Of a stretch of DNA of 64,000 nucleotides, positions 47,321 through 64,000 are shown one piece after another. The position numbers and the translations under genes are program-made. The notes under the pieces were generated by a model. It made no database searches, was not told the DNA's origin, and saw only the letters and a list, made by a program, of their open reading frames with translations. This stretch comes from Macrostomum lignano (taxonomy: Eukaryota): contig NIVC01001449.1 in assembly GCA_002269645.1 (NCBI GenBank), positions 224,034 to 288,033 on the forward strand, read 5' to 3'. Numbering within the stretch: position 1 is the first letter of the stretch; each line of letters begins with the position of its first letter.

Positions 47321-48091
47321 ATGTCGGCCCCAGCAACCAGCATTGCCCAGCAGACTCAAGCCGAAGATTCAGACAGAAGCCAAGCAACACTGAGGCCCGG
47401 TGGCCGCGGTGGCAATGGTGGAGGCTTCAGTCGCAGTCGTCTCAGCAGCAGCAACAGCGGCACTGCCGCGGCGCCCTCCCTAGTTGAAGCCTTCGGCGCT
47501 GCGGCAACTTTCACCCGCGGCGCCGCGGCAGCCGTCGCCGCAGCTGTGGAGTCGGCGACTGCGGCATCGACAACAGCCAAGCAGCCTCGGCGAGTCCGGC
47601 TGGCGCCTGGCAGGCAGCAGCAGCGCCCTGTTGCTCGTCTGCGTCGGTCTCTCGCGCCCTTGAAGGCGCCACCGTCGGGCGTGGCGCGTGACGACAGGCA
47701 CCGGGACTGGCTATTCCACGGCGGTCGCTACTATCAGCTGGGCGACGTGGTGGCTGTGACCGAGGATTCTTGCGAGTATTTCGGTCAGATCAAGTCTTTG
47801 TTCTTCGACAGCGAATTGTCTGCCAGCTGCCAGCTGGTCTGGTTGGTGCCGTTGGAGCGGCCTGCTGCTGGTGACAGCGGATCCATAGATCAGAAATTGG
47901 GATTCGAACCCGCGACTTACACTCTGGGGCCGGCTGACGAAGTTCTACACCGGCCGCTGAGCAGTATGAGGTTTGTGTGTCACTGTCCGACTGATTATTT
48001 TAGCGACTCGGCTGCTGGTGCAGCTGTGGGCTCTGCTGACAAAGGATTCGTGTGGACTACTCTGGAGAATGAGCTTGCCGCTCAACACTGA
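47321..48091 (+). CDS. GATAD1: GATAD1-like BAH-domain chromatin protein (no zinc finger in this ORF)
   Basis: LFHGGRYYQLGDVVAV..YFGQIK..LVWLVP..FEPATYTLGP..FVCHCPTDYF matches the GATAD1 C-terminal domain as recalled; first ATG at 47321; an upstream exon is possible. Confidence 0.8.
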   Translation: MSAPATSIAQQTQAEDSDRSQATLRPGGRGGNGGGFSRSRLSSSNSGTAAAPSLVEAFGAAATFTRGAAAAVAAAVESATAASTTAKQPRRVRLAPGRQQQRPVARLRRSLAPLKAPPSGVARDDRHRDWLFHGGRYYQLGDVVAVTEDSCEYFGQIKSLFFDSELSASCQLVWLVPLERPAAGDSGSIDQKLGFEPATYTLGPADEVLHRPLSSMRFVCHCPTDYFSDSAAGAAVGSADKGFVWTTLENELAAQH

Positions 48092-48805: not shown

Positions 48806-49427
48806 AAGTTGCTCTTTTAAATTTCAAGTAGGTCAAGTGTATGCTTAGCAAAATTCTGGTGCTGATAAATAAATGTAAATACATGAACTGCTATGCTTAC
48901 TGTTGTTCTCTGTGGACTCAATGTATCCCTTTTCTATTTAACTGAGTGAATAAATAAGAAGCACCTCAATTTTGACACAGCTGAGTAACGCGGTTATGAA
49001 ATGAATGAATCCGCTGTCTCTATGCCACGCATTTCAGTCTCTGATGCTGAGCAATTTTAAACGATTTATCAATTGCTACGTACTACTTACTTTGTTTCTG
49101 TTGGTATTGCCAATTTGTAAATAAAAGCGAAAATCGTGTCTTTGTTTGAGTTCAAAACTTTGTTTAACCATTTGGAAAGAAAACCAAGAGCCTTAATACC
49201 GTAAAATTGTTTATTAAAGTTTTTTTTTACTTTCGACTTTAATAAAAGTACGCTACAGTGGTTAGAAATATTGCACTACTGCTAGTAGCTAATCGCTTGT
49301 CAAGCGCTTGTGTAGTTGGCCCTCATGAGTGGGTGTAAATAGTTCGGCAACTCCCTGGCCATGTGCAGTACAATCACATCAAATGAATGTGGCTGTGGCC
49401 TTCAGCCCCAAAATAAGTGCCTGCGCC

Positions 49428-49790
49428 TGCGGCGCTAATATGAGTGCCTGCGGCGCTAATATGAGTGCCTGCGGCGCTAATATGAGTGCCTGCGGCGCTA
49501 ATATGAGTGCCTGCGGCGCCAAAATGAGTGCCTGCGGCGCCAATATGAGTGCCTGCGGCGCTAATATGAGTGCCTGCGGCGCTAATATGAGTGCCTGCGG
49601 CGCTAATATGAGTGCCTGCGGCGCCAATATGAGTGCCTGCGGCGCTAATATGAGTGCCTGCGGCGCTAATATGAGTGCCTGCGGCGCTAATATGAGTGCC
49701 TGCGGCGCTCATATGAGTGCCTGCGGCGCCAATATGGTTGCCTGCGGCGCTAATATGAGTGCCTGCGGCGCCAATATGAGTGCCTGCGGC
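49428..49790 (+). repeat. 21-bp minisatellite (TAATATGAGTGCCTGCGGCGC)n
   Basis: About 17 units, seen directly. Confidence 0.95.
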
Positions 49791-51007
49791 AGTAGTATAG
49801 GAAAAGTAGGTTTGAGCGCAACCCATTTTGAAAAATCACAAAAAACAGATAAAAATCGACTAAAAACAGGTGAAAATTGTCTGAAAACAGTGATTTTAGT
49901 GATTTTTCAAAAGTTTCGAAAAATTGCTTTTTGCGCGATTTCGTGAGTAAAACCACAAGAAATTTTTGATTCGTGGGTTAAAATAACCTATTTTCAGGTT
50001 TCATCATTTCAAAACTAGCATCAAATTTAATAATAGTCTTTTCTCCCATTGCATAACGCCCTTCAATAAGCCAATCTTACTAGCTTTGCTTTTAACGATC
50101 AGTCAGCTACCATCTATGCATAAAAATTGTCCACTCGAGGCATACAATGCTTTTACAAAAGTCAATAATTTGCTCCTGCACATTCGCTTTGTCCCGAGGC
50201 TTTGAAATGGCTTTAATGCTGTTCTAGATTTGTACTTAAAGATAATAGAAGACATTCAAGAACATGGAGCGCTAATTTAAATTTTTCGTGGCATGCATAC
50301 TCGACTACTAGAGCACTAACCGCAGCACTCAACATTTCTATTGGCTGCCAAAATTTCTGCCAAAACCAAAATTTTTGCCAAAATTTCTGCCAAAAAGTGT
50401 TTGGTTTTGGCATCCAATAGGAGTGGCTCGTGCAAATCTTTTGTGTTCACCCTCTATCTAGCTGTAAAAAAAGACATGAAGTGGGCCACGCAAGTTACAA
50501 ACGAACAATGCTCTCGCGACCCTACCTACGGACGATTTCACTAACCCTTTTCTAAATTATGTATCTTAAAAATGGAACAAATAGCAGGAGAAATTCTCCT
50601 CAAAGCAATTTTTATATTGTGACTCAGCTTTAACGTCGTGCGAAACCCACACTGAGTGAAGCGTATGGTCAAATAGGCTCTCGCAGGAACTCTAAAAATT
50701 GGTCAAGGACAGCTTCCATTACACAAAGTTAAATCTAATTCACGTAAATCAAAATTGCTATAATGAAAATTAATTATAAAAAATTAAAAAAGATAACAGC
50801 TCCTTAAAATCCGTTTTTAGGATACACTTCGCATAACTTATGCAAATAATAATAATGGTTTTGTATTTTAAATATTAAAGTAGTGATTATTAAAACAGTA
50901 ACAAAAAGTCCTCAAACGCCTATGAAGAACAAAATTAAAACATTAGAGCAATTTATTAATATTGACAAATTAGTCCATGATCGCCACAAGTCATCAATCA
51001 TCTAGTT

Positions 51008-51499
51008 TTAGTTAGCTGATGAAGCAGCAGTGCCTCGGTTGTCAGCAGTGCCTCGGTTGTCAGCAGTGCCTCGGATGTCAGCAGTGCCTTGGATGTCAGC
51101 AGTGCCTTGGATGTCAGCAGTGCCTTGGATGTCAGCAGTGCCTTGGATGTCAGCAGTGCCTCGGTTGTCAGCAGCGATCTCATAGGGTGGTGGAAGGCTA
51201 TCATCTTCAGTATCCAAATCACCAATCGCTTGCATGGCTTGAGCTTGGTTTTGATAGGATAGTGCAATAGCTTGCATGCTTTTTCTTTTTGCCACATTTT
51301 CCTTCAGAAGCTTCAGGAGCTTATCCTCCTCCGTAAAGGACTTGAATGTATCTAAACCTTGTAGCTTATTGATTAGTCTCTCAGAACCTAGATCTGCAAA
51401 TATAGTTAATGGCATGAGCCTTCGAATCTTTTGCTTTGTGAGTTCGAATTCCTTTCGATGATCCCTATATCTCTTGCGAAGTTCCTTTTCGGATGGCAT
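51008..51499 (-). CDS. Hypothetical protein with C-terminal GTAD(I/N)(Q/R) hexapeptide repeats (probably Polinton-associated)
   Basis: 163-aa ORF with a non-repetitive helical N-terminus and an in-frame 18-bp repeat tail. Confidence 0.5.
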   Translation of the reverse strand: MPSEKELRKRYRDHRKEFELTKQKIRRLMPLTIFADLGSERLINKLQGLDTFKSFTEEDKLLKLLKENVAKRKSMQAIALSYQNQAQAMQAIGDLDTEDDSLPPPYEIAADNRGTADIQGTADIQGTADIQGTADIQGTADIRGTADNRGTADNRGTAASSAN

Positions 51500-52215
51500 G
51501 TCTATTAAAGCTTTTTATTGTTGCAATGAATTTGGAGAGAATTATCAGCCATCTTTCCAAATTCATTCCTGTATTAATATTATGTGAAAATACAAAAGCA
51601 GCGCATAACCTCAATTCTCATTGGTATCTCATTGATGACAACCAATGAGAAAGCGACACCGGGTGAATGGAATGCAACTTTGCAGGCTCATGCCAGATGC
51701 AGAAAAAATTCTATCCACATGAGTCAGAATTGTAGTTACTTGAGATGCATGGCATCGCACTGCACAATGTACACTGAAAGAAACTATGTTCCTTTTTTCT
51801 TTAAAGCAGAATGACTCAACATTCTTTCTAGCTTTTCGCATCAAGAATGAAGCAAAGCAACTAACCTAACCCTAACAGTTTAGCAGTTGAGTCAATAAGA
51901 ATTTATTGTTCCTTTATCAATAGGTTTTGAATATCAGCATGCTGCAGCAGGAATTGAGCACCTCTTAAACCCCAACTCTAAAGCACGGCCATGGCAGTTT
52001 TTTCTCTATTTTCATGACTCAGTGCGCATGTAAGAAGTCGCTTAGGTGGCTTGATAAAAACCCGCTTTAGTTTTGGAAGCAATACAACACACGTTTATCA
52101 GACAGACTAAAGCAAACAGAGTGAACATATAAATCACACAACTCAGCAACAACGAAAAGGTAAGAAATAAGAGTTTTGTTCTTGTGTTGATTTTGATACT
52201 AGCTAAATAGTTATA

Positions 52216-52851
52216 ATGCCCTACATTTTAGAATCCCGTATGGAGGCAGCAATGGCATCATTCGAATCCGACCTCGATAGTCTTATCAAGGAGATTTTTT
52301 GTAGTGGGGATTTAAAGCATTGTAAGAAATGGATAGGAGAATATAACAAGGTTGCTAGAAAATTTAATAGGAAGAAGTTTGCTATTCCAACTTTTCGAGG
52401 TAGATTGGAGAGAGTGGACAAGACAAAGGAACGAATAGCAGAAGCTGCTAAAATACTGCGGGATTCGATGGAGCATCAAGAGCCGGGAGAGATTAATGAA
52501 TTTATGGACGGAGAGTATCAATTTCAGGATGCAATTACAGAACTTAATTCCATTGATAAAATGATAAACGAGCTACAGTGCCGGGGCTTGCAGTATGGAA
52601 TTAAGTCTGGTCAGATATTAATAAGAATGAAGCTTTCATTGAGTGACGAGGAGTATAAAGTATTTTTGTCTAGACTACGCTTTAAGTCCGCGTGGGGGAA
52701 CTATTTAGTCCGAGTGGCTCGTCTAAGCACAGCACATCCAATTCTGTGGCGTTGTGGCATCTCACTGTTTCGCCTACGTTCTATAATCAAGTACGCTGAG
52801 AAAGCCCTGGAGATGCTGGAGGAAGAGGAGGAAGATGCACTTCTGATCTGA
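52216..52851 (+). CDS. Hypothetical helical protein (weak DUF3102-like motif)
   Basis: Open 211-aa ATG ORF, virus-like composition; GQILIRMK..Y..FL..L.F..AWGNYLVRVA motif. Confidence 0.6.
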   Translation: MPYILESRMEAAMASFESDLDSLIKEIFCSGDLKHCKKWIGEYNKVARKFNRKKFAIPTFRGRLERVDKTKERIAEAAKILRDSMEHQEPGEINEFMDGEYQFQDAITELNSIDKMINELQCRGLQYGIKSGQILIRMKLSLSDEEYKVFLSRLRFKSAWGNYLVRVARLSTAHPILWRCGISLFRLRSIIKYAEKALEMLEEEEEDALLI

Positions 52852-52911
52852 TGAAAATCTTATTGCGCGCGTTGTGAATCATAACATCTGACTCTCATTA
52901 TGCTGACTATT

Positions 52912-53140
52912 CTTTTTCACATCGAATACTGCAGTATCTGGTTCTTTTTTGCTCGTTGCTTTTTCACATCGAATACTGCAGTATCTGGTTCTTTTTTGCT
53001 CGTTGCTTTTTCACATCGAATACTGCAGTATCTGGTTCTTTTTTGCTCGTTGCTTTTTCACATCGAATACTGCAGTATCTGGTTCTTTTTTGGTCGCTGC
53101 TTTTTCACATCGAATACTGCAGTATCTGGTTCTTTTTCTG
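52912..53140. repeat. 5 x 47-bp tandem repeat, each with the 12-bp palindrome ATACTGCAGTAT
   Basis: ATCGAATACT recurs at 52921, 52968, 53015, 53062 and 53109. Confidence 0.95.
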
Positions 53141-53247
53141 CCTATTGTAATATCGCTTATACATTTCTAATTGCTTAATCCTGTGGATGCCACAATAAAT
53201 TTATAACGTCATTACATAATTTTCCTGCTAAATTTATTTTATAAAAA

Positions 53248-56200
53248 ATGGAACAACTCAGAAAGATGAGTGATGAAGAATTTGAACAATACATTCAAGC
53301 TGAGCGGTTTCGGCGTCAGCAGCAAAAGCACACAGATAATGAGCCTATAGCGGAGTCCAAAGAAGATGAAGTGGCAGCTCCGCAGATTGGTGATGAAATA
53401 ATACTACATAAATCCTTTAGAGAGAAGTATAATAAGAAGTCAGAAATTTCAGAGTATGTCATTAGGAATGTTAATGAAGGTTATATAACAAAGGTTTTTA
53501 TTCAGTATGAAGATGCAATTAAAGCAGTGTTGGAGAAAGTTAGAGATGGTGGACGGAGTAAGTTCAACTTGCATTTTGAACTAGAATTCAAAAAGAATTT
53601 TAACGAAGACATTCCTCCCTTCACAGTCTATGACAATGAAAGTGGATTCTACAATATTCAGTCAGATTCACAGTATGACACTGCCCTTAGCGAAAGACAG
53701 GAGACATTGGAAAAGTTCATTGATGAGTTCTGTGAGAAGGGATCAGATAATGTCTTTGTGCAGATAAAATCTATCTACATCAGAGTTGCCAAGGTTTCTA
53801 GCATTCAGGGAGGATCCTTCTTTACTAACAATGAAATTAAAAAATGTCGATCAATTCTTAACATTCAGAATGATGATGAGAAATGCTTCCTCTGGTGTGT
53901 ATTAGCTGTTAAACATCCACAAAATAAAGATGGTTATCGAGTGTCAAAATATAAACCATATGAAAAAGAACTTAATCTCACCGATATCCAATTCCCCATG
54001 AGAATAAAAGATATAAAAAAGTTTGAAAGACTAAATGAAGAGTTTGCTGTTAATGTGCTGTATTATGAAGGTAAATTCCCAGATACACTACAACATCTCT
54101 ATGTCTCACCTCATAATCAACGAACTTATGTAGTAGATTTACTATACCTGGAGGAAGATGGTAACACTCATTATTGTCTGATAAAAAATCTTACAACATT
54201 AGTTTCAAAACAAACTGGAAAGCGTGTAAATCACAAGTCATTTTTATGCAGAACATGCATGACTGTTTACACAAGTGAAAACGTGTTGGCCGAGCACTCA
54301 AGGTTGTGCGGTAAAAATGCACCCGGTCTTTATAAATTACCTAAGGAAGAATCGAAGCTGAAATTTAAGAATCATATATTCAAACTAAAGCTACCCATCG
54401 CTATCTATGCTGACTTTGAAGCAACAACTGAACCCATTGAAGCACAAAGTAAAAGCTTCACTAAGATTTTAGACAAAGAGTCATATACTCTAAAAGTAGC
54501 AAATCAGAACGCAATAGCTTACGGTTTTTATATCCATTCTGAGTTACCCGAGGTAATTAAATCGAAGTATGAAGGATATTGTGGCACAGATGCCAAGGAA
54601 AAATATGTTGATAGAATGGTTGAAATTTATCAACAAATTAAGAATGGTCTGAAGGAGCCTAAGCATATTAATCATAATTTGACATCGCAAGAGGAGGCTT
54701 CTTTCTGTAAGGCTAAACAATGCTACATATGCGAGAAGGAGTTTGATATGGTTCCAGATATGAAGGTGCATGTGAAGGAAATTGACAGTAAAGTTACTAT
54801 AGAATCTTGGTGCAAAAAATGTCTGAACAAGAGCAATAATATAAGTAAATATAAGATCACAAAGCAACAATGGAAAGAGTTTTACAGGGCTGAAAAATGT
54901 GCGAATTGTAAAAATGACTTTACACTTAAGCTAGGTAAGGTAAGAGAACATTGTCACTATAGTGGCAAATATAGAGGGGCTGCCTGTAAATCCTGCAATG
55001 CTCTCGAGAGTAAGAAGCGAGTAATCCCAATCTACTTCCAGAATGGATCCCACTATGACTTTCACTTCTTAGTGACACATTTAAAGAGCAAAGAGACCAT
55101 GGAGGATAAGTTATTTCCTCCACTATCTAAAACTTCTGAAGAGTACATTTCTCTCGAGTTTGGATGTAACAAAGTAGTACTGAGGTTCCTAGATTCATAC
55201 AGGTTCTTGGCTTCCTCGCTGGATATCTGCGCAAAGTCCCTGAAGGATGAAGACTTCATCATAACAAAGAAATACTTTAAAAACGACAGCGATTTTCAAT
55301 ATGTTAAGCGCAAGGGTGTATTCCCATATGAGTATATCAGAAGCTTTGGAAGATTAGCAGAAACTGAGTTACCACCATTGAAAGAGTTTTACTCGAGGTT
55401 GAAAGGTGAAGACATTTCTTCAGATGAATATGATTTTGCAAAACAAATGTGGAAAACTTTTAGTTGTAAGAATTTGGAGGATTATATGATGCTGTATCTT
55501 AAGGTTGACGTTCTATTATTAGCAGATGTATTCGAACGCTATAGAACATTCTTCCTGAAACACTTTGAGATTGATCCAGCCAGATGCTTCTCAGCACCAG
55601 GATTGAGTTGGAATGCTGGGTTGAAGAAAAGTAAAGTTGAGTTAGACTTGCTGGCGGATATCGATATGATTCATATGATTGATAGTGGAATAAGAGGTGG
55701 ATTTAGCGGAGTTCTAGGGTCACGATATGTAAAGGCAAATAATCCTTATCTTCCAGGCTATGATTTAGAAAAACCAACTTCCTACTTACTTTACGTTGAT
55801 TGTACAAATCTCTATGGTTATAGTATGTTGGAACCCCTTCCTTTTTCTGACTTTAAATGGGAAGCTGATTCCAACTATTATAAAAATCCTCCTGAAGGAC
55901 GGGGCTGTCTTGTTGAATGTGATCTTGAATATACAAAAGAATCAAAAAAGAAAACGTATGCCTTCCCATTAGCACCTGAAAGTACAACTGTGTCAGAAAG
56001 TGAATTGAGTGAATATCAGAAAGGATGTCTAGAAGTCGAAATGAAAAAGATTGGAAAAGTTCCTAAATTGATCCTTAATTTAAAAAATAAAACAAAATAT
56101 ATCGTACATCATAAGCTATTGCGATTCTATGAAGAGATGGGCTTGAAAGTGACAAAAGTACATAGGACGATTTCATTCAATGAAAAGCCATGGTTAAAGG

Positions 56201-57075
56201 AGTATATCGAGTTTAATACGATAGAAAGAAAGAAGGCAAAAGAAGCAAAAATTGAGTTCGAAGACAATCAGTTCAAAATGCTTAATGTAAGCATCTTTGG
56301 CAAGACAATGGAGGATGTTAAAAAGAGAAAGCGATTTGAGTTGCTGACAAGTGAGGATGAGATATCTAAGATAATATCCAAGCCAGATTTCATAGACTTC
56401 AAAATCTTCAATGAAAATCTAATTTGCATTCACCAGCGACCTAAGAATATCCCTCTTGGAACAAAGCCAACATACGCTGGACAAGCAATTCTGGATCTCT
56501 CGAAATTGCATATGTATGAAACATTTTACAAAGTTTTCAAGTCCAAATGGGGGGATAATGTTGAGATTGTTACCTCTGACACCGACTCATTCATTCTTCA
56601 TATAAAGACAGAAAATATTTATAAAGACATTGCTCAGATGAAGGAGCATTTCGATTTGTCGCTGTATACTAAAAATTTTCCGATTGATTTACATGATATG
56701 AATAATTGTGGAAAGCTGGGAACATTCAAGGATGAATTGGCAAAATATGATTGCATAATGACAGAAGTAACCGCTCTAAGATCGAAAGCATATTCATTTA
56801 AAACAGTTTATGTCAGCACTCAAAAGGAAGGGAAGGAAGAGAAAAAATTAAAGGGAATCTCAAAGTCAACAGTGAAGCATCATGTACAATATGATGACTA
56901 TAGAAATATACTACTTGATTATAACGAACCAGTCTATAGGAAAGTGTATAGCCTTAGATCAGACAAGCATAACATGACTTTAATAGAACAAAATAAGAAG
57001 GCTATTAGTCCTTTCGATGACAAAAGATACATTGAATCCAATGGAATTATAACACATCCTCATGGATTCAAATAA
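53248..57075 (+). CDS. Protein-primed family B DNA polymerase (pPolB), Polinton/adintovirus type, 1275 aa intact
   Basis: KCFLWCVLA N-domain; exonuclease YADFE and DSYRFL; endonuclease-VII-like EHCHYSGKYRGAAC; polymerase YVDCTNLYG, KMLNVSIFGK, SDTDS, GTFKDE, RSKAYS. Confidence 0.96.
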   Translation: MEQLRKMSDEEFEQYIQAERFRRQQQKHTDNEPIAESKEDEVAAPQIGDEIILHKSFREKYNKKSEISEYVIRNVNEGYITKVFIQYEDAIKAVLEKVRDGGRSKFNLHFELEFKKNFNEDIPPFTVYDNESGFYNIQSDSQYDTALSERQETLEKFIDEFCEKGSDNVFVQIKSIYIRVAKVSSIQGGSFFTNNEIKKCRSILNIQNDDEKCFLWCVLAVKHPQNKDGYRVSKYKPYEKELNLTDIQFPMRIKDIKKFERLNEEFAVNVLYYEGKFPDTLQHLYVSPHNQRTYVVDLLYLEEDGNTHYCLIKNLTTLVSKQTGKRVNHKSFLCRTCMTVYTSENVLAEHSRLCGKNAPGLYKLPKEESKLKFKNHIFKLKLPIAIYADFEATTEPIEAQSKSFTKILDKESYTLKVANQNAIAYGFYIHSELPEVIKSKYEGYCGTDAKEKYVDRMVEIYQQIKNGLKEPKHINHNLTSQEEASFCKAKQCYICEKEFDMVPDMKVHVKEIDSKVTIESWCKKCLNKSNNISKYKITKQQWKEFYRAEKCANCKNDFTLKLGKVREHCHYSGKYRGAACKSCNALESKKRVIPIYFQNGSHYDFHFLVTHLKSKETMEDKLFPPLSKTSEEYISLEFGCNKVVLRFLDSYRFLASSLDICAKSLKDEDFIITKKYFKNDSDFQYVKRKGVFPYEYIRSFGRLAETELPPLKEFYSRLKGEDISSDEYDFAKQMWKTFSCKNLEDYMMLYLKVDVLLLADVFERYRTFFLKHFEIDPARCFSAPGLSWNAGLKKSKVELDLLADIDMIHMIDSGIRGGFSGVLGSRYVKANNPYLPGYDLEKPTSYLLYVDCTNLYGYSMLEPLPFSDFKWEADSNYYKNPPEGRGCLVECDLEYTKESKKKTYAFPLAPESTTVSESELSEYQKGCLEVEMKKIGKVPKLILNLKNKTKYIVHHKLLRFYEEMGLKVTKVHRTISFNEKPWLKEYIEFNTIERKKAKEAKIEFEDNQFKMLNVSIFGKTMEDVKKRKRFELLTSEDEISKIISKPDFIDFKIFNENLICIHQRPKNIPLGTKPTYAGQAILDLSKLHMYETFYKVFKSKWGDNVEIVTSDTDSFILHIKTENIYKDIAQMKEHFDLSLYTKNFPIDLHDMNNCGKLGTFKDELAKYDCIMTEVTALRSKAYSFKTVYVSTQKEGKEEKKLKGISKSTVKHHVQYDDYRNILLDYNEPVYRKVYSLRSDKHNMTLIEQNKKAISPFDDKRYIESNGIITHPHGFK

Positions 57076-57077
57076 GT

Positions 57078-57383
57078 TTAAAAAACCAAACAATTCAATT
57101 GCTTAAGAAGTTTCTTGCGCTGATCATTAAACTCAACATACTTCCTGATCTCTTTTATTTTTTTAACTAACTTGTCGATTTCATCTTCAATAAATGCTTC
57201 TGCAAAAACAATAGCAGTTTCAAGAAAACATTTGCGATCACTTAATTTATCAATATATCCATAATCCGGTTCTATTATTCCACAATGTGTACGCACCTCC
57301 CTAAAGTTATTTATTTGTATTTCTCTATCAATGCGCTTTATTTCATCTTGGTATGCATTTAGGAGAACTTTTATTGCAGCCAT
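57078..57383 (-). CDS. Hypothetical Polinton protein
   Basis: 101-aa ORF packed between pPolB and the next gene. Confidence 0.55.
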   Translation of the reverse strand: MAAIKVLLNAYQDEIKRIDREIQINNFREVRTHCGIIEPDYGYIDKLSDRKCFLETAIVFAEAFIEDEIDKLVKKIKEIRKYVEFNDQRKKLLKQLNCLVF

Positions 57384-57408
57384 TTTCTAGAAAAAAAATT
57401 ATACAATA

Positions 57409-58149
57409 TTAATTGTAGGGAGGTGCACTTGGAGCATTTGATTGAAGATTGAGTGTTGCCGAGTACTCTTTTGGCTTATCAGCTAGACCCAATTTTTCTC
57501 TCAGATCTTTTTCTAGTAATTCCTTTTTAATTTTTTCCTTCGCTGAATGACCAAGTCTACTCTCTTTGAGGATTTTATCAACGACTTCCGAATGGTTAAC
57601 TTCTTCAGGCGCAACACAGGCGTCTAACAATTGATCTCTTTTTTCTCTGTATTCTGAATAAATTGCAGCAGCTGCTTGAACCTCTTCAAGAGTTAATCTA
57701 TAATCATCAACTGCTTTTTGGGAGTAAATATACAATCTCTCTCTATATTGATTTGCCAGATCTCTGAGAACAATGTATTTTGCCTTCTGCTTTTGGCAAT
57801 GAATTTTCACAGTTGCAAACAACGACGTGGATTTTACAGCTTCAAAACCACTCATTGCCCCGATTACTACTCCAATAACTAAGGGATTCAATGTCAGTAT
57901 CGATGTTGCTATGCCAATTCCTGTAGCAGCCAAGAGACTTACATTTCCTGTCACAATGTTGATCCAATTTATCCTGCTACTTTGCCGTTTGTACTTTTTT
58001 ACCTTTTTGCTATAAATTGTAAGATCTTTAGTAATGCATTCAATACTGCCTTTGATTTCACCCTTTCTCTGATTGAAATAGTCCCGCTCCCTCAAATCTG
58101 CTTCATGCAGCTCAACCACAGGATAGATGTGTTCATTTTTTTCATTCAT
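57409..58149 (-). CDS. Polinton membrane-associated protein (hydrophobic hairpin plus coiled coil)
   Basis: Hydrophobic stretch WINIVTGNVSLLAATGIGIATSILTLNPLVIGVVIGAM; KAVDDYRLTLEE motif; C-terminal PSAPP. Confidence 0.7.
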   Translation of the reverse strand: MNEKNEHIYPVVELHEADLRERDYFNQRKGEIKGSIECITKDLTIYSKKVKKYKRQSSRINWINIVTGNVSLLAATGIGIATSILTLNPLVIGVVIGAMSGFEAVKSTSLFATVKIHCQKQKAKYIVLRDLANQYRERLYIYSQKAVDDYRLTLEEVQAAAAIYSEYREKRDQLLDACVAPEEVNHSEVVDKILKESRLGHSAKEKIKKELLEKDLREKLGLADKPKEYSATLNLQSNAPSAPPYN

Positions 58150-58151
58150 TT

Positions 58152-59561
58152 TTATGTGGCGATTATGTCTAAAATCGGATAAAGTTGAAAGCCTGAAACA
58201 ATAAGAACGGTTGATCCTTCAGTGGCTGAATTAATATGCACTCTATAAACAGAGAATTTTTCGGTGGAAGCTACTTCAAAATATTTCATGACTCCAGGAA
58301 CTAAACCAGCGTTTTCGGTAGAAAAAATATTCCTAAAGTCTCTCTTGTTATTGCTCCCTTTCAGAATAAAACTTTTTGGTTGATTTTTTATAATTTCACT
58401 ACCTACTGCTTTGGTTCCTTTCAATCCGAATTTCCAAATTTGAATAGACTCGGGAAGTTGTACTTCAATGTAAGAATTGGGTTCATTCCTCGATGCCCAT
58501 TCTGAATTAGATACTATATAACCCCAATTATCTGACGTTTCAAATGCTCCTGATGACGCTACATTGAAACCCCTTTCTCTATAGTTTTGACGTGTTGCTA
58601 GTGAGGGAATATATCCTGTATAAGATTTGAAACCTAGTCCCCGCCTTAGTCGCAGCTCCACTGATTCAAGTGCATTGTCTACGTATAGCTTTGGTACAGC
58701 TTGAAGTCTATCTATAGGCCACACTAAATCATTAACCACTGTTTGTCTCTCAAGTAATTCAACTTTTGTAAGCTTTACGGAACCAGAAAAATTAAGAGAA
58801 TAATGGAAATAATATGAGGGATTGGGTATTTTTTTCCTAAGATGTGCATTGCCCCTTCGTAGTTCAATGGGTGCACTTTGTTCAACAGGTGTCCAGTTTG
58901 TTCCATTTAGGCTCACACTAACAGACCAACCAGGCCACACCTCTCCTTCCAACTTTATCTCTACAACTTTCCTAGCTCTTTTCAAAAATTGAAATCGTAT
59001 CCACTTGTCTGAGTCATCTGCACTGCTCCAATCTGAAGCTGGGTTTGAATCTGCAACATGATATGCTGCTGAAGAGTTATGAGAAGCGGTCACTTTCATG
59101 TCAGAATGGGAAGCGTTTGAAGTCAGTAATGAAAGAATATTGACTAATTTCGAACTCTCTGTACCTCCCGCAGTACCTTGCCATTCTGCTAACAAAGTGT
59201 CAATCTCAGTTTTAGAATACATCTTAGTGTCAATCTCAGTTTTAGAATACATCTTAGTGTCAATCTCAGTTTTAGAATACATCTTAGTGTCAATCTCAGT
59301 TGTTGTGTAGAAATTGTTTACGCGCCCATGAGCATCGTCAATTAATTGTAGCATGGTGATATTCATTGCGTCACTATCTTCCTTTGAATAAGAGTCTGAA
59401 ACATTTCTCTTTGCTAACAATAAATTATCTATTTCCTCTCTCTTATATCCTTCATTTTCATTGATGTATCGATCATCAGCTAACGCTATTGTTATTCCAG
59501 GTGCTATATCATTTGAATTTGACGAGTAACCAAATTGATTGGCAGTATTCTTGTAACTCAT
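58152..59561 (-). CDS. Putative fibre/spike protein: YSKTEID repeats plus two discoidin/F5-8 type C-like modules
   Basis: 10-aa repeat YSKTEIDTKM (30-bp units, ~59196-59300); AVPKLYVDN linker; VTAS..W..WIRFQF..SLNGTNWT and EWAS..SYIEVQLP..FILKGSN..YRVHI. Confidence 0.7.
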   Translation of the reverse strand: MSYKNTANQFGYSSNSNDIAPGITIALADDRYINENEGYKREEIDNLLLAKRNVSDSYSKEDSDAMNITMLQLIDDAHGRVNNFYTTTEIDTKMYSKTEIDTKMYSKTEIDTKMYSKTEIDTLLAEWQGTAGGTESSKLVNILSLLTSNASHSDMKVTASHNSSAAYHVADSNPASDWSSADDSDKWIRFQFLKRARKVVEIKLEGEVWPGWSVSVSLNGTNWTPVEQSAPIELRRGNAHLRKKIPNPSYYFHYSLNFSGSVKLTKVELLERQTVVNDLVWPIDRLQAVPKLYVDNALESVELRLRRGLGFKSYTGYIPSLATRQNYRERGFNVASSGAFETSDNWGYIVSNSEWASRNEPNSYIEVQLPESIQIWKFGLKGTKAVGSEIIKNQPKSFILKGSNNKRDFRNIFSTENAGLVPGVMKYFEVASTEKFSVYRVHINSATEGSTVLIVSGFQLYPILDIIAT

Positions 59562-59989
59562 TTTAATTGCTGCAAAATTTCGTTATAGCTATCTCCTTTA
59601 TCGATTCGGTGTAAAAAGTACAGCGACATTTGACCACAATATTTCTTATCAAAAGTTTGAATTTGTTCTTCCATGTCTCCACATATTCTATTCTTTGTGT
59701 GATTAAACTTTTCCATAATTTCCAGTGTGGGCGGTAGTGCATAGGAATCAAAAAAATAAACCTTATCAGGAGCTGAAAATATAGCTGAATGATGTATACC
59801 CCGTTCTTTCGAAGTGTGAATATTTGTCATAAAGTAACCATACTGTGGTAAATCAACAATTTCATCTCTCATGGCATAGCGAAATGGTTTTAACTTGAGA
59901 TATTTTGCCCAATTTATCAGATCAATATTAGTCGTAGTGTCAGTCCCAAACTTTTGTTTAAATGCATTCCATGTCTCAGCTTCGCTCAT
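59558..59989 (-). CDS. Adenain-like cysteine protease
   Basis: GIHHSAI (His), YFFDSY (Asp), QIQTFDKKYCGQMSLYF (Gln/Cys); ATG at 59989. Confidence 0.88.
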   Translation of the reverse strand: MSEAETWNAFKQKFGTDTTTNIDLINWAKYLKLKPFRYAMRDEIVDLPQYGYFMTNIHTSKERGIHHSAIFSAPDKVYFFDSYALPPTLEIMEKFNHTKNRICGDMEEQIQTFDKKYCGQMSLYFLHRIDKGDSYNEILQQLK

Positions 59990-59998
59990 TTTTAACAC

Positions 59999-60787
59999 TC
60001 ATATTTGTCGTACGTGTAGATTTATAAATATTTCCTCGCCATCAAAGTCGTATAGAACACCAGACTCATCTTCGATGACAAAGTCGAATGTGCTCAACAT
60101 GTTTGTAGTTAGTGGTAGGTACACAGGATTTGCGGCTCTTGAATAATTTTACTTCCCATTGGGACAGAGAACGATGGAATTGAAAGAAGTATTTGCTTAT
60201 CAATTAAATGATTTCCATTAGCTGGATCAGTGATAAAACCCCCTTTGATATTAGACAACGAACCATGATCGCACTTCTAGCTCCGTCTATCCGAGCTGGA
60301 TTTGGAGCTCTCTCAAATGGTTTCAAATACACTTCCGAATTGAATCCCAACAGTCTTCTAAAGTTATTGGAATGTGCATCCCTGAAATCAACTTGATAAT
60401 CTGTGGCTAACCGTAACTCAACTCTACGCGTGTCTAGGCTTGCACTGAAAACAATAGCCCCTCTTTCCAATCATTTGCAGCTGTTAGCAATCTTTGAATC
60501 TCGCTTGACAGACTTTTAACTTCCCAAGATCCCGCTTGAATCTTTATTTTTTTCCATGTTCTACCACTATCCCTCGAGTATCGCAACTCATTATTGCCTC
60601 CTTCAATATTGTTAATAGCATCAAAGACTGCAAACTTTTTTATACCAGCTTCGTATTCTCGATCTTCATACAAATTTATAGGAGTGCCTAGAGTTTGTCG
60701 AAATGGGTTTTTAATTGAAAAGAAGTCAAATGTGCGTTGAAACTTTTTACTCAAGAGGATGTTGACTTTTTCTATTTCTTTTTCCAT
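59999..60787 (-). pseudogene. Minor capsid (penton) protein, frameshifted
   Basis: PINL..EYEAGIK..INNI..NNELRY, LLGFN, IMVRC and C-terminal NPVYLPL..FVIEDESG.LYDFDGE..INLHVR; shifts near 60460 and 60200. Confidence 0.78.
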
Positions 60788-60789
60788 TT

Positions 60790-61095
60790 TTAAGCAAGTA
60801 ATTCTGCTAGCTCTTTATCAACATTATTATGTCCTTCTGCCTTGGCGGCTAATAAAGTTAACACTCTTTCACTGAGTCCAGATCCCGGTTTTACTCGATA
60901 TCCTGGTGGATTATCTTTCAATATCCTTACTGCTTGCTTATAATTCCCACTTGATTTGGCCGCTGGATTTTTACAATGTTCAATGATGTTAACATAATCC
61001 TGCAATGTTTGCATCTTGAATTGCTTCAGCTCTTCACCATTTTCAGTTACTTTAGGCATTTTGAACAACTCTTCAAGATCTTCAGAAAATGGCAT
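60790..61095 (-). CDS. Hypothetical Polinton protein (start uncertain)
   Basis: 101-aa ORF ending at a TAAAAATG junction; contains GSGL..LTLLAAKAEGHNN. Confidence 0.5.
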   Translation of the reverse strand: MPFSEDLEELFKMPKVTENGEELKQFKMQTLQDYVNIIEHCKNPAAKSSGNYKQAVRILKDNPPGYRVKPGSGLSERVLTLLAAKAEGHNNVDKELAELLA

Positions 61096-61251
61096 TCGAA
61101 ATTCGTTGACAATGATGTCTCGACCTTGTTCATGGAATTCAACATCTATTACAGATGATCCAAATATATATCCAGCATCAGTTTTTTGAATCGTATACTA
61201 GGCGCTGGTCTTTGAGTTATTGGAATCTTTCCAATTTCTTCAATTATTTTG

Positions 61252-61518
61252 TCAAATACTTCTAGGGTTCAAATCGCCTTTTGGTGTACTTGATTGCGGA
61301 ACTGGAACTTTTTGATTCTGAAGTTTATCAACAAGGTTGGCATTGACATCAATAAATTCATCGAGCTTTTCTGTGACAGGTTTTTGAGCTAATGGAGCCA
61401 CTCTTGCATATAAACTCTCTTCTCCAATTTTCAAATAGCGTTGAGCATCATTTCTGGATTTGTACATTTCTCGCTGCTTTGCTAAATTAATGAGTTCTCT
61501 TATATATTCATTAGTCAT
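61252..61518 (-). CDS. Hypothetical Polinton protein (may be joined to 60790-61095 through frameshifts)
   Basis: 88-aa ORF starting at a TAAAAATG junction. Confidence 0.45.
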   Translation of the reverse strand: MTNEYIRELINLAKQREMYKSRNDAQRYLKIGEESLYARVAPLAQKPVTEKLDEFIDVNANLVDKLQNQKVPVPQSSTPKGDLNPRSI

Positions 61519-61520
61519 TT

Positions 61521-62293
61521 TTACAATGGGATTTTAGTTAGAACATCCTTATACAAATCTTGCTCATCCTCATCAGCTCTTGTATTTATATAGATATAGC
61601 CATACTTCTTTTTCCAAGCCTCTCTACATTTAGCCTTGAATATAGCGGGTTCATAATTCGTTTCTATATTTCTAGCAATGTGATTTAAGTTTGTATCTTT
61701 TTGTTTAAAGATTATGTAACATGTCGTATTCTCCCTGACAGTATTGCGATCTAGTTTGGTAAAATTTTGAGCTAGATAAAAACCACAACAGTTTCCATGC
61801 CTGCCTCTCTGAAACAGACTTTCCTGAAATGTTTGATTAGCCTCTCCAAAACATCATCCAATATCACACATGTCTTTAGTCCATTATGAAAAATTTCTTC
61901 ATTTGGAGTATGGGAAAGAGTGACAGGAATTTTCTCTATTACTTCTGAATTTTCTGATGTGCTTTGCACTCGACCAGGGTTGGCTGCCTCTCGACAAATA
62001 TGTCTAATATCTTCAGGAGATGCATCCTCACTCACCTGGTAGACATGATAGAGTGAGTTGATAAGAGAAGGTGGGAGACCATTTTCAAAGCCATATTTTA
62101 GAAACTGATACTCTGGATCCATTTGAGATGCTCTGGGAACATATAAAACTAACTCATTAAAGTCAACTAGTTTTTCAGGACTTGTAAGAATATGGAATAG
62201 TAAATATGTTTTACCCGTATTTGTAGCGCCGATAATACAACATAAAAGAGGATTAGGGAAAATAGGATCATGCTGAAATTTTACTTTGGGCAT
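61521..62293 (-). pseudogene. A32/FtsK-like genome packaging ATPase, one frameshift
   Basis: Walker A IIGATNTGKT, Walker B VILDD; after a shift near 61820, RGRHGNCCGFYLAQN..DRNTVREN (Arg finger/Gln sensor) to stop 61521. Confidence 0.88.
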
Positions 62294-62315
62294 TTAAAAA
62301 AGAAAAAATGACCTT

Positions 62316-63667
62316 ATTCGACGCGGGTCATTTGATATTCACTGGTAACTTTTATTACATTCTTTGTTTGTTCAAGAATTAGTGCAAAAGCAGTCAGCTC
62401 AACATTTGTTGACTTCTTGATAAATAATTGAATATTCACTCCACTCTTGACCAGAAACTCATCTGAGCTGTTAGATCAAAGCAAAGATTGGATAGATGGT
62501 TAGAAAGTCTTGTTTATTGAATGGAGGAGTTACACCGAAACGGCTGCAGATGTCTTCGTACATTTCATACGCTCTGTGAATGTCTTGAGCTACTGGATCA
62601 ATTTCAACATAATCATTCGGATACATCACCTGATTTAATCTGACTTGAAGCTGGGTTATTTTCACTGCATTTGCTCCAGTTTTGTAAGACACATACTTGT
62701 GATCATTAACTATATATGATGGGTTGTTTACGTCATATTTGAAAGCTACAAAGATTGCAAGTGGCATATTGGAGATTTGGCTATGTTCCATGTATATGGA
62801 CTTCCTTGAATGAGTTGTGGCGGAACCGTTACCCTCTCTGGAAATGATACTGTAATGTCCTTGTTGAGTGATTTTAGAAAAGCTGCTTCAGCACTGGGTG
62901 AAAGTAATAGCAGGGATCCAAATCTCAAAGCTATTAATAGTTAACTTAGCTTCCGTCCCGGCAGCTCCAAAGAAAATTTCAGCATCGTTAGTCTTTCTTG
63001 TCCATGTGAATTTATATTTAATTCCTTTGCTAATCTTCTGCCAATCAAGGAACCAATGAGGGGTGTTAATGATAGTTTGATTGTTCCACCTCTGTTTGGA
63101 GCATTAGTGACATTGTTATAATTTTCAAGCCTCCTAATGTATCCAGTATTCGAATCCTTCTTATTGAGTCTATTTTTCATAGCGATTGCTGCAGTTCTCA
63201 CAGCTTCAGCATCTGCGTTGTTTGCTAGAGTATATCAGAAACAGTCCCAGCATCTCCAGTGTCTGGAATCCATCCGTATGCTTCTCCAACTTCATTCATA
63301 ATTTTGAGTACATTACGGACTTTAAGATTGTGTCATACTCTCCAGGATCATTATAGACTTTCTTTGTTCCTCCAATGTCAACTATGAGTTGAGAGAAAAG
63401 TCTCATAGGCCAATTATGTTCTAGAGTAATGTTCGTATTCAAGTCGGTGTTATCTCGTTGTGTTATTGAGTATTTTATACAACCGAATGCCTCTGACATG
63501 AGAATGTATGACTCTGTTGAATTGACTTCATGAACTATTTGACCTCCTGCAACATTGAGATTATTAGTGCTACCTGGTGTTGGAGAAATCTTAATATAGT
63601 CTTCTTTTTTTTGAAAAAGCTAAAAGTTTTGTCTCATATAGTTCAGTATATCCTTTTTGTTCTCCAT
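62316..63667 (-). pseudogene. Major capsid protein (double jelly-roll type), multiple frameshifts
   Basis: About 1.35-kb gene next to ATPase/penton; beta-rich fragments (LFSQLIVDIGG, LQVRLNQVMYP, AYEMYEDIC, YPIFAFDLTAQ); position and size fit an MCP. Confidence 0.72.
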
Positions 63668-63789
63668 TTTTATACGAGAAATTTCAACTAAGCTTCGTGA
63701 GGTCTAAGAATTATCCCATTACCCTGTTTCTCCTTTTCAACTTTAAAAGTCTTTAGCAGCCACTTGACTGCTTCGCTGGTACTTGTTCG

Positions 63790-64000
63790 ACTCTTTTAGC
63801 CGATCAACTAACACTCCACTCCTTGAGCCTTTTTCAACTCTTCTAGTTTTGTCGTTCAATGCTTTCTATTGTCTTATTATGCTTAGCATTGTTGGCTGTA
63901 TTAACACTTTTGCAATCATTGTACCAACTCGGAGGCTGCTCCGATAGCCACCCAATTGCTGGTAGTAAGCCTAATAGAGGAATTATTCCACCTTCATGTT
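63790..64000 (-). pseudogene. Small Polinton core/membrane protein fragment (GG|IIPLLG motif)
   Basis: HEGGIIPLLGLLPAIG..AKSVNTANNAKHNKTIE across frameshifts; GG-x resembles an adenain cleavage site; truncated by the window end. Confidence 0.5.

Follow-up and report, generated by a model that had tools for sequence, protein, structure and literature searches.

What lies at the end of a contig of the flatworm Macrostomum lignano, and is it still active? The window analyzed here is the whole 64,000-nucleotide stretch at positions 224,034 to 288,033 of contig NIVC01001449.1, which is the last 64 kb of that contig, and it ends within a Maverick/Polinton that we call type A. It has long been an open question whether the Mavericks of animals produce particles. 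Our reading, which we consider likely, is that type A is a germline Maverick that has recently multiplied, accompanied by a sister replicon, type B, which has the same capsid-integrase block, other ends and another replicase, and whose integrase gene probably carries a self-splicing, homing intron. Taken alone, the window copy is an ordinary Maverick; the unusual features, the second replicon and the group I intron, lie in sister copies. We observed directly the anatomy of the copies, their numbers, their target-site duplications (TSDs), the empty sites, the shared block, the loss of polymerase motifs, and the structure and site of the intron.

The type-A Maverick and its selected virion genes

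The type-A element is 17,395 bp long in the alignment of genome copies. A preliminary description of the window had recognized a Polinton here but began it at 50990; the true start, with a 902-bp terminal inverted repeat (TIR), is at 49791, 1.2 kb further left. Because the window stops at the contig end, which cuts the element, the integrase, ORF164 (164 aa) and the right TIR are visible in other copies only. It was through these copies that we found the 902-bp TIRs, the 6-bp TSD and the rve integrase that the preliminary description had proposed to look for beyond the contig. Polintons have AG..CT ends and a 6-bp TSD, and type A has both. Its order is TIR, ORF1, ORF2, pPolB and then, on the opposite strand, ORF4, ORF5, fibre, protease, minor capsid, PZ-like gene, ATPase, major capsid protein (MCP), ORF150, ORF164 and integrase, followed by the right TIR. 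The features in the window are as follows.

49785..49790: TSD TGCGGC, in a 21-bp minisatellite; an identical 6-mer follows the right end on contig C2071
49791..50692: left TIR, 902 bp, begins AGTAGT; seven other copies have it inverted at their right end, with 99.6-100% identity
51008..51499, minus strand: ORF1, 163 aa with a tail of 18-bp tandem repeats; 145-193 aa across copies
52160..52231, plus strand: spliceosomal intron, 72 nt, GT..AG, upstream of the likely ORF2 start
52240..52851, plus strand: ORF2, 203 aa, helical, early gene; open from 52216 in 9 of 10 copies
52912..53141: tandem repeat with a 47-bp unit, copy number variable, probably noncoding
53248..57075, plus strand: type-A pPolB, 1275 aa, open frame
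57078..57383, minus strand: ORF4, 101 aa, type-A specific, open in 11 copies
57409..58149, minus strand: ORF5, 246 aa, two-helix membrane protein; left edge of the block common to type B
58152..59561, minus strand: fibre-like protein, 469 aa, helical repeats and two F5/8 type C (discoidin) domains
59558..59989, minus strand: adenain-like cysteine protease, 143 aa
59999..60787, minus strand: putative minor capsid (penton) protein, frameshifted in the window; 263 aa in another copy
60790..61518, minus strand: core gene, which we take to be PZ-like, frameshifted in the window; 243 aa in four copies
61521..62293, minus strand: A32-type packaging ATPase (Pox_A32 match), frameshifted in the window; 257 aa in eight copies
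62314..63667, minus strand: double-jelly-roll (DJR) MCP, frameshifted in the window; 454 aa elsewhere
63688..64000, minus strand: 3' part of ORF150, a 150-aa virion-core-like ORF with a hydrophobic GGIIPLL stretch, cut by the contig end

As the preliminary description had it, an intact pPolB converges on a minus-strand block of protease, penton, ATPase and capsid genes. This virion module is complete in other copies, and each type-A gene is a single open frame in at least one copy and mostly in several. We checked 12 of 47 indel rows (MCP and ORF150) against sequencing runs and found the assembly contradicted by all four runs at 11 of them and by two runs at the twelfth. Since the frameshifts in the window are mostly not common to four independent runs, they are likely to be assembly errors near the contig end. 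The MCP matches a DJR-like Pfam family (E=2e-13), its structure model (pLDDT 77) matches the mavirus and Sputnik capsids, and it is 99% identical to a protein annotated in M. lignano. The type-A pPolB bears an OTU domain, has no PF03175 match, and keeps in the aligned motifs the OTU Cys/His, Exo I-III, an endonuclease VII insert and Pol A-C. The 452-aa integrase of the sister copies joins an N-terminal PLA2 domain to an rve domain (PF00665, 39.5 bits); the chromo family was not detected at E<=0.1, and the extension of P0094 and P0105 is absent.

A 1-kb probe from the type-A pPolB matched 16 places in the genome at 93-100% identity, and median divergence among type-A copies is 0.44% in pPolB and 0.33% in the TIR. 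Among 28 type-A ends there are 13 pairs with the same 6-bp flank (12 in trans and one in cis), representing eight distinct TSDs, and the empty site for one insertion is found on three other contigs with an overlap of exactly 6 bp. Thus, the TSD is real, and the assembly swaps ends among copies.

Replication chemistry, particles, splicing and homing are what we infer from these genomes. Type A would be excised or copied out and then exist as a linear DNA form. Protein-primed synthesis by pPolB would proceed from the AGTAGT ends, and the OTU domain would release the terminal protein. The ATPase would package the DNA into DJR particles matured by the protease, the discoidin fibre would mediate attachment, and the rve integrase would reintegrate the DNA with 6-bp target duplications.

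It is also possible, if rather doubtful, that the family is an intracellular transposon only, which spreads within germ cells and whose capsid genes remain from a recent past as a virus, with particles no longer formed. There is no virion evidence, many internally deleted and cargo-carrying derivatives have intact ends, and singleton variants are nearer neutral than shared variants. However, the ratio of nonsynonymous to synonymous polymorphism (pN/pS) on shared variants is 0.08-0.33 for the virion genes (MCP, minor capsid, protease, fibre and core genes) among copies less than about 6% apart, and putative RNA contigs span the capsid block, although DNA carry-over is possible. The ratio is 0.17-0.22 for the MCP, which in 23 of 41 copies has no frameshifting indel over the aligned part, 0.13 for the minor capsid, 0.20 for the PZ-like gene, 0.33 for the fibre and 0.29 for the type-A pPolB. 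For the type-B pPolB, the primase-helicase and the integrase it is 0.14, 0.24 and 0.11, respectively. Contig depth is unfit to rank the genes, and the higher depth of run X12 over the capsid block is simply consistent with the copy counts. The family is young, its virion genes are under selection and there is some signal in RNA, so in this cultured model flatworm the particle question becomes testable by observation.

The type-B replicon

We found that the other copies which the preliminary description proposed to seek are mostly of another type. The MCP probe gave 56 candidates (40 scored, 90-100% identity) against the 16 for the type-A pPolB, and a primase-helicase probe gave 46 (40 scored); type B is more numerous. 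Its left module encodes a 1027-aa pPolB, an 833-aa Prim-Pol/PriCT-2/D5 primase-helicase and a 113-aa ORF, to which form B2 adds a RING protein. The type-B TIRs differ from those of type A, yet both ends begin AGTAGTA. Four 6-bp TSDs pair up at type-B ends, two of them in cis, and a 25-bp hairpin folds in 22 of 23 type-B ends (z=-7.0 versus -1.2 for type A). The two pPolBs are 45% identical in the polymerase domain. The type-B enzyme retains the motifs of its OTU and polymerase parts, but not those for proofreading: of 14 copies examined, all 12 that are readable at Exo I have lost its acidic residues, and all 11 readable at Exo III have that motif deleted. Among the 36 nearest database pPolBs kept for alignment, Exo III is present in all 36 and an aligned Exo I in 35. 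A scan of IMG/VR with the primase-helicase gave two distant non-Polinton loci.

The rest of the element is nearly the same in the two types. From ORF5 through the integrase, type B has about 96-98% BLAST identity to type A; the median A-B2 substitution difference is 0.5-2.9% per block gene, and for the MCP it is 0.9%, versus 0.7% within A. Only 52 diagnostic columns distinguish the A and B2 blocks, clustered at both block ends, and the left and right ends of one type remain linked in the copies typed. At one locus type A is nested in type B, and a third Polinton family (G000 C67:338000-348700; L135 and L086) lies directly beside a type-B left end. Nesting offers a possible route for module exchange of the sort proposed in a recent preprint (bioRxiv 10.64898/2026.10.13.758929). 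Co-resident and sometimes nested A and B genomes would recombine, which would leave the capsid block near-identical while ends and replicases differ.

Less probable still than a transposon-only life is that type-B replication is started by the primase-helicase at the hairpin ends and not by pPolB, which would catch a replicase replacement midway. The hairpin ends, the loss of proofreading and the Prim-Pol/PriCT-2/D5 gene are all confined to B, and such a replacement has been proposed (bioRxiv 10.64898/2026.10.13.758929). However, the type-B pPolB is under purifying selection (pN/pS 0.18 in the terminal-protein/OTU part and 0.12 in the polymerase part), and mavirus, which is protein primed, also paired loss of the exonuclease with gain of a superfamily 3 helicase (PMC11161782). 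Both this explanation and the transposon-only one are partly compatible with our reading of two sister replicons.

The type-B module occurs in two fixed orientations, B1 and B2. We considered an actively flipping segment and rejected it: the two forms differ in flanking sequence and a 21-bp junction is duplicated, so we read this as a fixed rearrangement. The third family has a pPolB about 30% identical to that of type A, a separate PLA2 gene, an integrase and a protease.

A group I intron in the type-B integrase

In type B, an insert of about 880 bp separates integrase codon 44 from codon 45, within the YxG|PG loop that is conserved in the PLA2 domain. We read 34 integrase junctions and found the intron in 17; the others were 13 type-A junctions, none with the intron, and four B-ended copies without it. 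The group I model RF00028 scored above its gathering cut-off of 50 at at least 28 loci in the genome search (72.7-91 bits), and an intron probe gave 189 candidates, 40 of them scored. We examined 26 cores, leaving out two of the 28 loci: 25 have the same 5' junction, and the remaining one has the same downstream exon. All 25 introns read end to end have an exon-final U, an intron-final G and a P1 that is 5/5 paired, and changes in intron length fall in peripheral loops. The upstream exon is open for 44 codons from its ATG in 22 of the 25 and the downstream exon for 408 codons in nine; together these make the 452 aa of the type-A integrase. The intron is absent from the window, from two type-A right-end loci and from 16 related environmental Polinton-like loci.

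The intron has an ORF of its own (211-250 aa, at least 150 aa in 16 of the 25), running from the first loop into the core; this nuclease-like ORF has a pN/pS of 0.35, and in the integrase exons of the 26 intron-bearing copies the ratio is 0.12-0.17. Between two copies compared, the nuclease is 9.4% different and the adjoining 350 exon bases are identical. The history of the intron is unlike that of its host gene. Judged from its sequence, the intron probably self-splices and homes through its own nuclease: its removal from the integrase RNA would be needed for the full 452-aa protein, and the PD-(D/E)xK-like nuclease would cut intron-free alleles. In IMG/VR, a scan with the nuclease gave no relatives, but a search for an exact 25-base motif of the core hit four contigs. 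All four contain group I introns, lying in genes that by eye look like those for giant-virus RNA polymerase or capsid. The type-B intron is 71-78% similar to these giant-virus-like contig introns over 80-147 nt. The environmental integrase P0013 starts with an intron 3' end read as protein, and its cluster mate P0403 is intron free. Many shortened type-B derivatives (L153-L168) retain the intron-bearing integrase and have no capsid genes.

A dead intron, with the type-B integrase inactivated and type B mobilized in trans by the type-A integrase, seems improbable to us. The terminal AGTAGTA is common to A and B ends, nonautonomous derivatives show that trans-mobilization occurs, and splicing was not observed. 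However, the splice-site U, terminal G and P1 are all retained in 25 of 25, the length changes stay in peripheral loops, and the exons evolve under the constraint given above.

Several points weigh against our reading of two replicons and a mobile intron. The nuclease call is a single Pfam match (RE_Eco47II, 28.2 bits against a cut-off of 25.9), with no PDB, PHROG or phage support. There are just six shared variants over integrase codons 47-83 in intron-bearing copies, and type A is intron free despite living beside the nuclease. Full-length type-A copies never have a TSD common to both ends in cis. The matches in trans mean that the assembly mixes near-identical copies, so A/B comparisons could be blurred too, and since some copies are one insertion assembled twice, copy counts exceed insertion counts. 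The selection tests use few variants and copies that are not independent, and single-base indels occur in many copies (5 of 14 type-B pPolBs and 4 of 14 primase-helicases are frameshift free). We observed neither particles nor free linear DNA nor spliced RNA of the integrase, the reads having been compared with the window only, and the RNA labels of the sequencing runs are guesses, no run with the stretch being recorded as RNA. That a contaminant or infecting virus was co-assembled with the worm, or that A/B sharing is mis-assembly, as the many copies at contig ends and the mixed ends might suggest, is very hard to credit, because host genes and retroelements lie in the flanks, empty homologous sites exist, the stretch is present in runs of eight studies of the one organism, and independent runs have loose ends at the A/B and B1/B2 junctions (57416 and 58152-58172).

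Comparison with known systems, relatives and neighbouring features

The family is like Polintons/Mavericks in its OTU-bearing pPolB, rve integrase, A32 ATPase, protease, DJR major and minor capsids and long TIRs; it differs in the N-terminal PLA2 of its integrase, in which a chromodomain was not detected. The fusion is common among environmental relatives, with many cases among the 120 listed of 409 homologues, and no passage describing it was found in the literature searched. Environmental Polintons vary in this respect: some have the PLA2-integrase fusion, others a PLA2 gene apart from the integrase. The fused form seems to occur widely and to have received little description. PLA2 is typical of Alpha virion modules, as a separate gene (PMC8502044, PMC12451622). 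Beta adintoviruses (Eupolintoviridae, formerly Adintoviridae; same sources) share with the Macrostomum elements a PolB that bears OTU and lacks PF03175, an animal host, an integrase and adenain, but hexons annotated in adintoviruses are distant from the Macrostomum MCP: among named adintovirus structures, the best match to its model has 11% sequence identity. Eupolintoviridae are defined in PMC11071296 by an N-terminal OTU in PolB, which is present here, by a hexon that BLASTp recognizes reciprocally with those of reference adintoviruses, and by a C-terminal integrase chromodomain, which was not found, and we do not file the family there.

In nematode Polintons, too, closely similar elements of a single genome carry two divergent pPolBs (PMC10748475). 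In the nematode pPolB1/pPolB2 exchange both polymerases have all Exo motifs, unlike type B, and in Macrostomum the ends, polymerase, helicase and accessory genes differ together while the block has about 97-99.5% DNA identity. Polisuviruses have identical morphogenic genes with different replicases, which is called rare (bioRxiv 10.64898/2026.10.13.758929), so exchange at near-zero divergence of the capsid block adds to a short record. Both replicase exchange and the pairing of exonuclease loss with a gained helicase are thus already known in kind; unlike in polisuviruses and mavirus, the Macrostomum exchange is multicopy and in an animal germline, and type B has its pPolB beside a full Prim-Pol-D5 gene, a pairing called uncommon in PMC3671162.

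Nuclear group I introns are described as exclusive to rRNA genes of eukaryotic microorganisms (PMC3679873), and among Polinton-like viruses (PLVs) as confined to those of a few protist groups (PMC12220804). The type-B intron resembles PLV, giant-virus and nuclear rDNA introns in its RF00028 core, 5' splice-site U and terminal G. Unlike them, it lies in a protein-coding integrase gene of an animal nuclear genome and has an Eco47II-like nuclease; nuclear rDNA introns have His-Cys nucleases, and three of the four viral matches have GIY-YIG-like ones, read by eye. In a literature whose coverage was incomplete, we found group I introns reported neither from an animal Polinton nor from an animal nuclear genome; a report for animal Polintons may nevertheless exist. 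We suggest, tentatively, that the germline of a bilaterian animal may hold an active homing group I intron, related to those of giant viruses, in the integrase of a still-replicating endogenous DNA virus with two replicons, one protein primed and proofreading, the other hairpin ended and equipped with a primase-helicase, which exchange a single capsid module. If true, this multicopy intron in an animal protein gene would extend the ranges in PMC3679873 and PMC12220804 and would point to gene flow from giant viruses to animal germlines; if also unreported, it would break the rule that restricts nuclear group I introns to the rRNA genes of microbes. It would further provide a laboratory-reared animal for testing Maverick virions, module exchange and homing.

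The preliminary description also raised an undescribed lineage. For the capsid this is plausible, because its sequence relatives are unnamed environmental proteins: the nearest are at 33-63% identity, no named adintovirus is among 12 homologues, and there are 179 at E<=1e-30; IMG/VR scans with the MCP and the MCP alignment gave no relatives. The gene order and accessory set, however, are not unique, the accessory genes mostly having counterparts in environmental relatives. Fifteen metagenome loci have this set of genes, in an order that is either similar or shuffled, and on one contig (L141) MCP, ORF150, ATPase, PZ-position ORF, minor capsid, protease, fibre-like ORF and membrane ORF converge on pPolB. 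In a FastTree of 62 mostly unnamed pPolBs, A and B are not separated with confidence and sit on long branches in one subclade. The environmental pPolBs P0306 and P0307, which are related, have PF14890 and PF14528 domains, presumably of intein and LAGLIDADG type, a further sign of homing parasites in the lineage. We found no paper on Macrostomum Polintons/Mavericks, with incomplete literature coverage and most subscription papers outside it, and "Macrostomum" is absent from the supplement of PMC8502044. Macrostomum copies may be cataloged in the supplement of PMC10748475, where 748 pPolB1 from 8 of 73 flatworm genomes are identified by accession alone.

Among the smaller genes, the repeat protein ORF1, put forward as an accessory gene, has a pN/pS of 1.8 (seven shared variants), and ORF4 has five nonsynonymous and no synonymous shared variants; purifying selection was seen in neither. 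Pfam, PHROG and Atlas gave no informative family for ORF2. The joint of the 72-nt intron before it was found in contigs of runs X9 and X16 (putative RNA, two studies) and was absent in the DNA-like run X12 and in X20, which barely covers that place. A 92-aa "ORF" at 52900-53178 is the 47-bp tandem repeat listed above and is probably noncoding. ORF5 is weakly SLATT-like (Pfam SLATT_1, E=0.027, below cut-off; pN/pS 0.27), and its Atlas matches are clusters from molluscs and viruses, none a named family; SLATT-like membrane proteins are common in this virus group (bioRxiv 10.64898/2026.10.13.758929). The fibre-like protein probably binds a receptor: it matches PF00754 (E=7e-10) and a PHROG tail protein (E=2e-7), with no match in phage tblastn and an unusable structure model (pLDDT 34). 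The protease has His/Asp/Gln-Cys motifs by eye and tblastn matches to Polinton-like contigs (E to 2e-23), with no Pfam match or PDB sequence relative. The minor capsid is named provisionally from its position and homologues, with no family match. In one study, run X20 contained half of the element's words and runs X22 and X23 next to none, which could reflect tissue- or stage-specific expression or just depth.

To the left of the element, the window holds host sequence: long terminal repeat and other retroelements, a G protein-coupled receptor gene and a Mutator-like transposase. Just beside it, a GC-rich host ORF of 256 aa (47321-48091) has no Pfam match at E<=0.001; it may be GATAD1-like. 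The type-A copy in the window (flank 49420-49790) and one type-B copy (G000 C2696) both sit in the same 21-bp minisatellite family, and another type-A copy sits in a different minisatellite. Derivatives of type A include a 7.9-kb internal deletion with both TIRs and a TSD in cis (G000 C1095:9713-17573; L096) and nonautonomous 12.6-13.6-kb elements with type-A ends (G000 C3314:12807-26445, C1157:303462-317100 and C1638:176141-188744; L098-L103). The latter lack a capsid block, have inverted repeats that reach about 2 kb, and carry an ORF2 paralogue along with a tnp2-like transposase as cargo. Both of their ends have the same outer 9-mer, which is not a TSD. In one type-A copy (L008; G000 C3459:33773-38739), pPolB is split by a 5-kb insertion of a retroelement resembling long interspersed nuclear elements.

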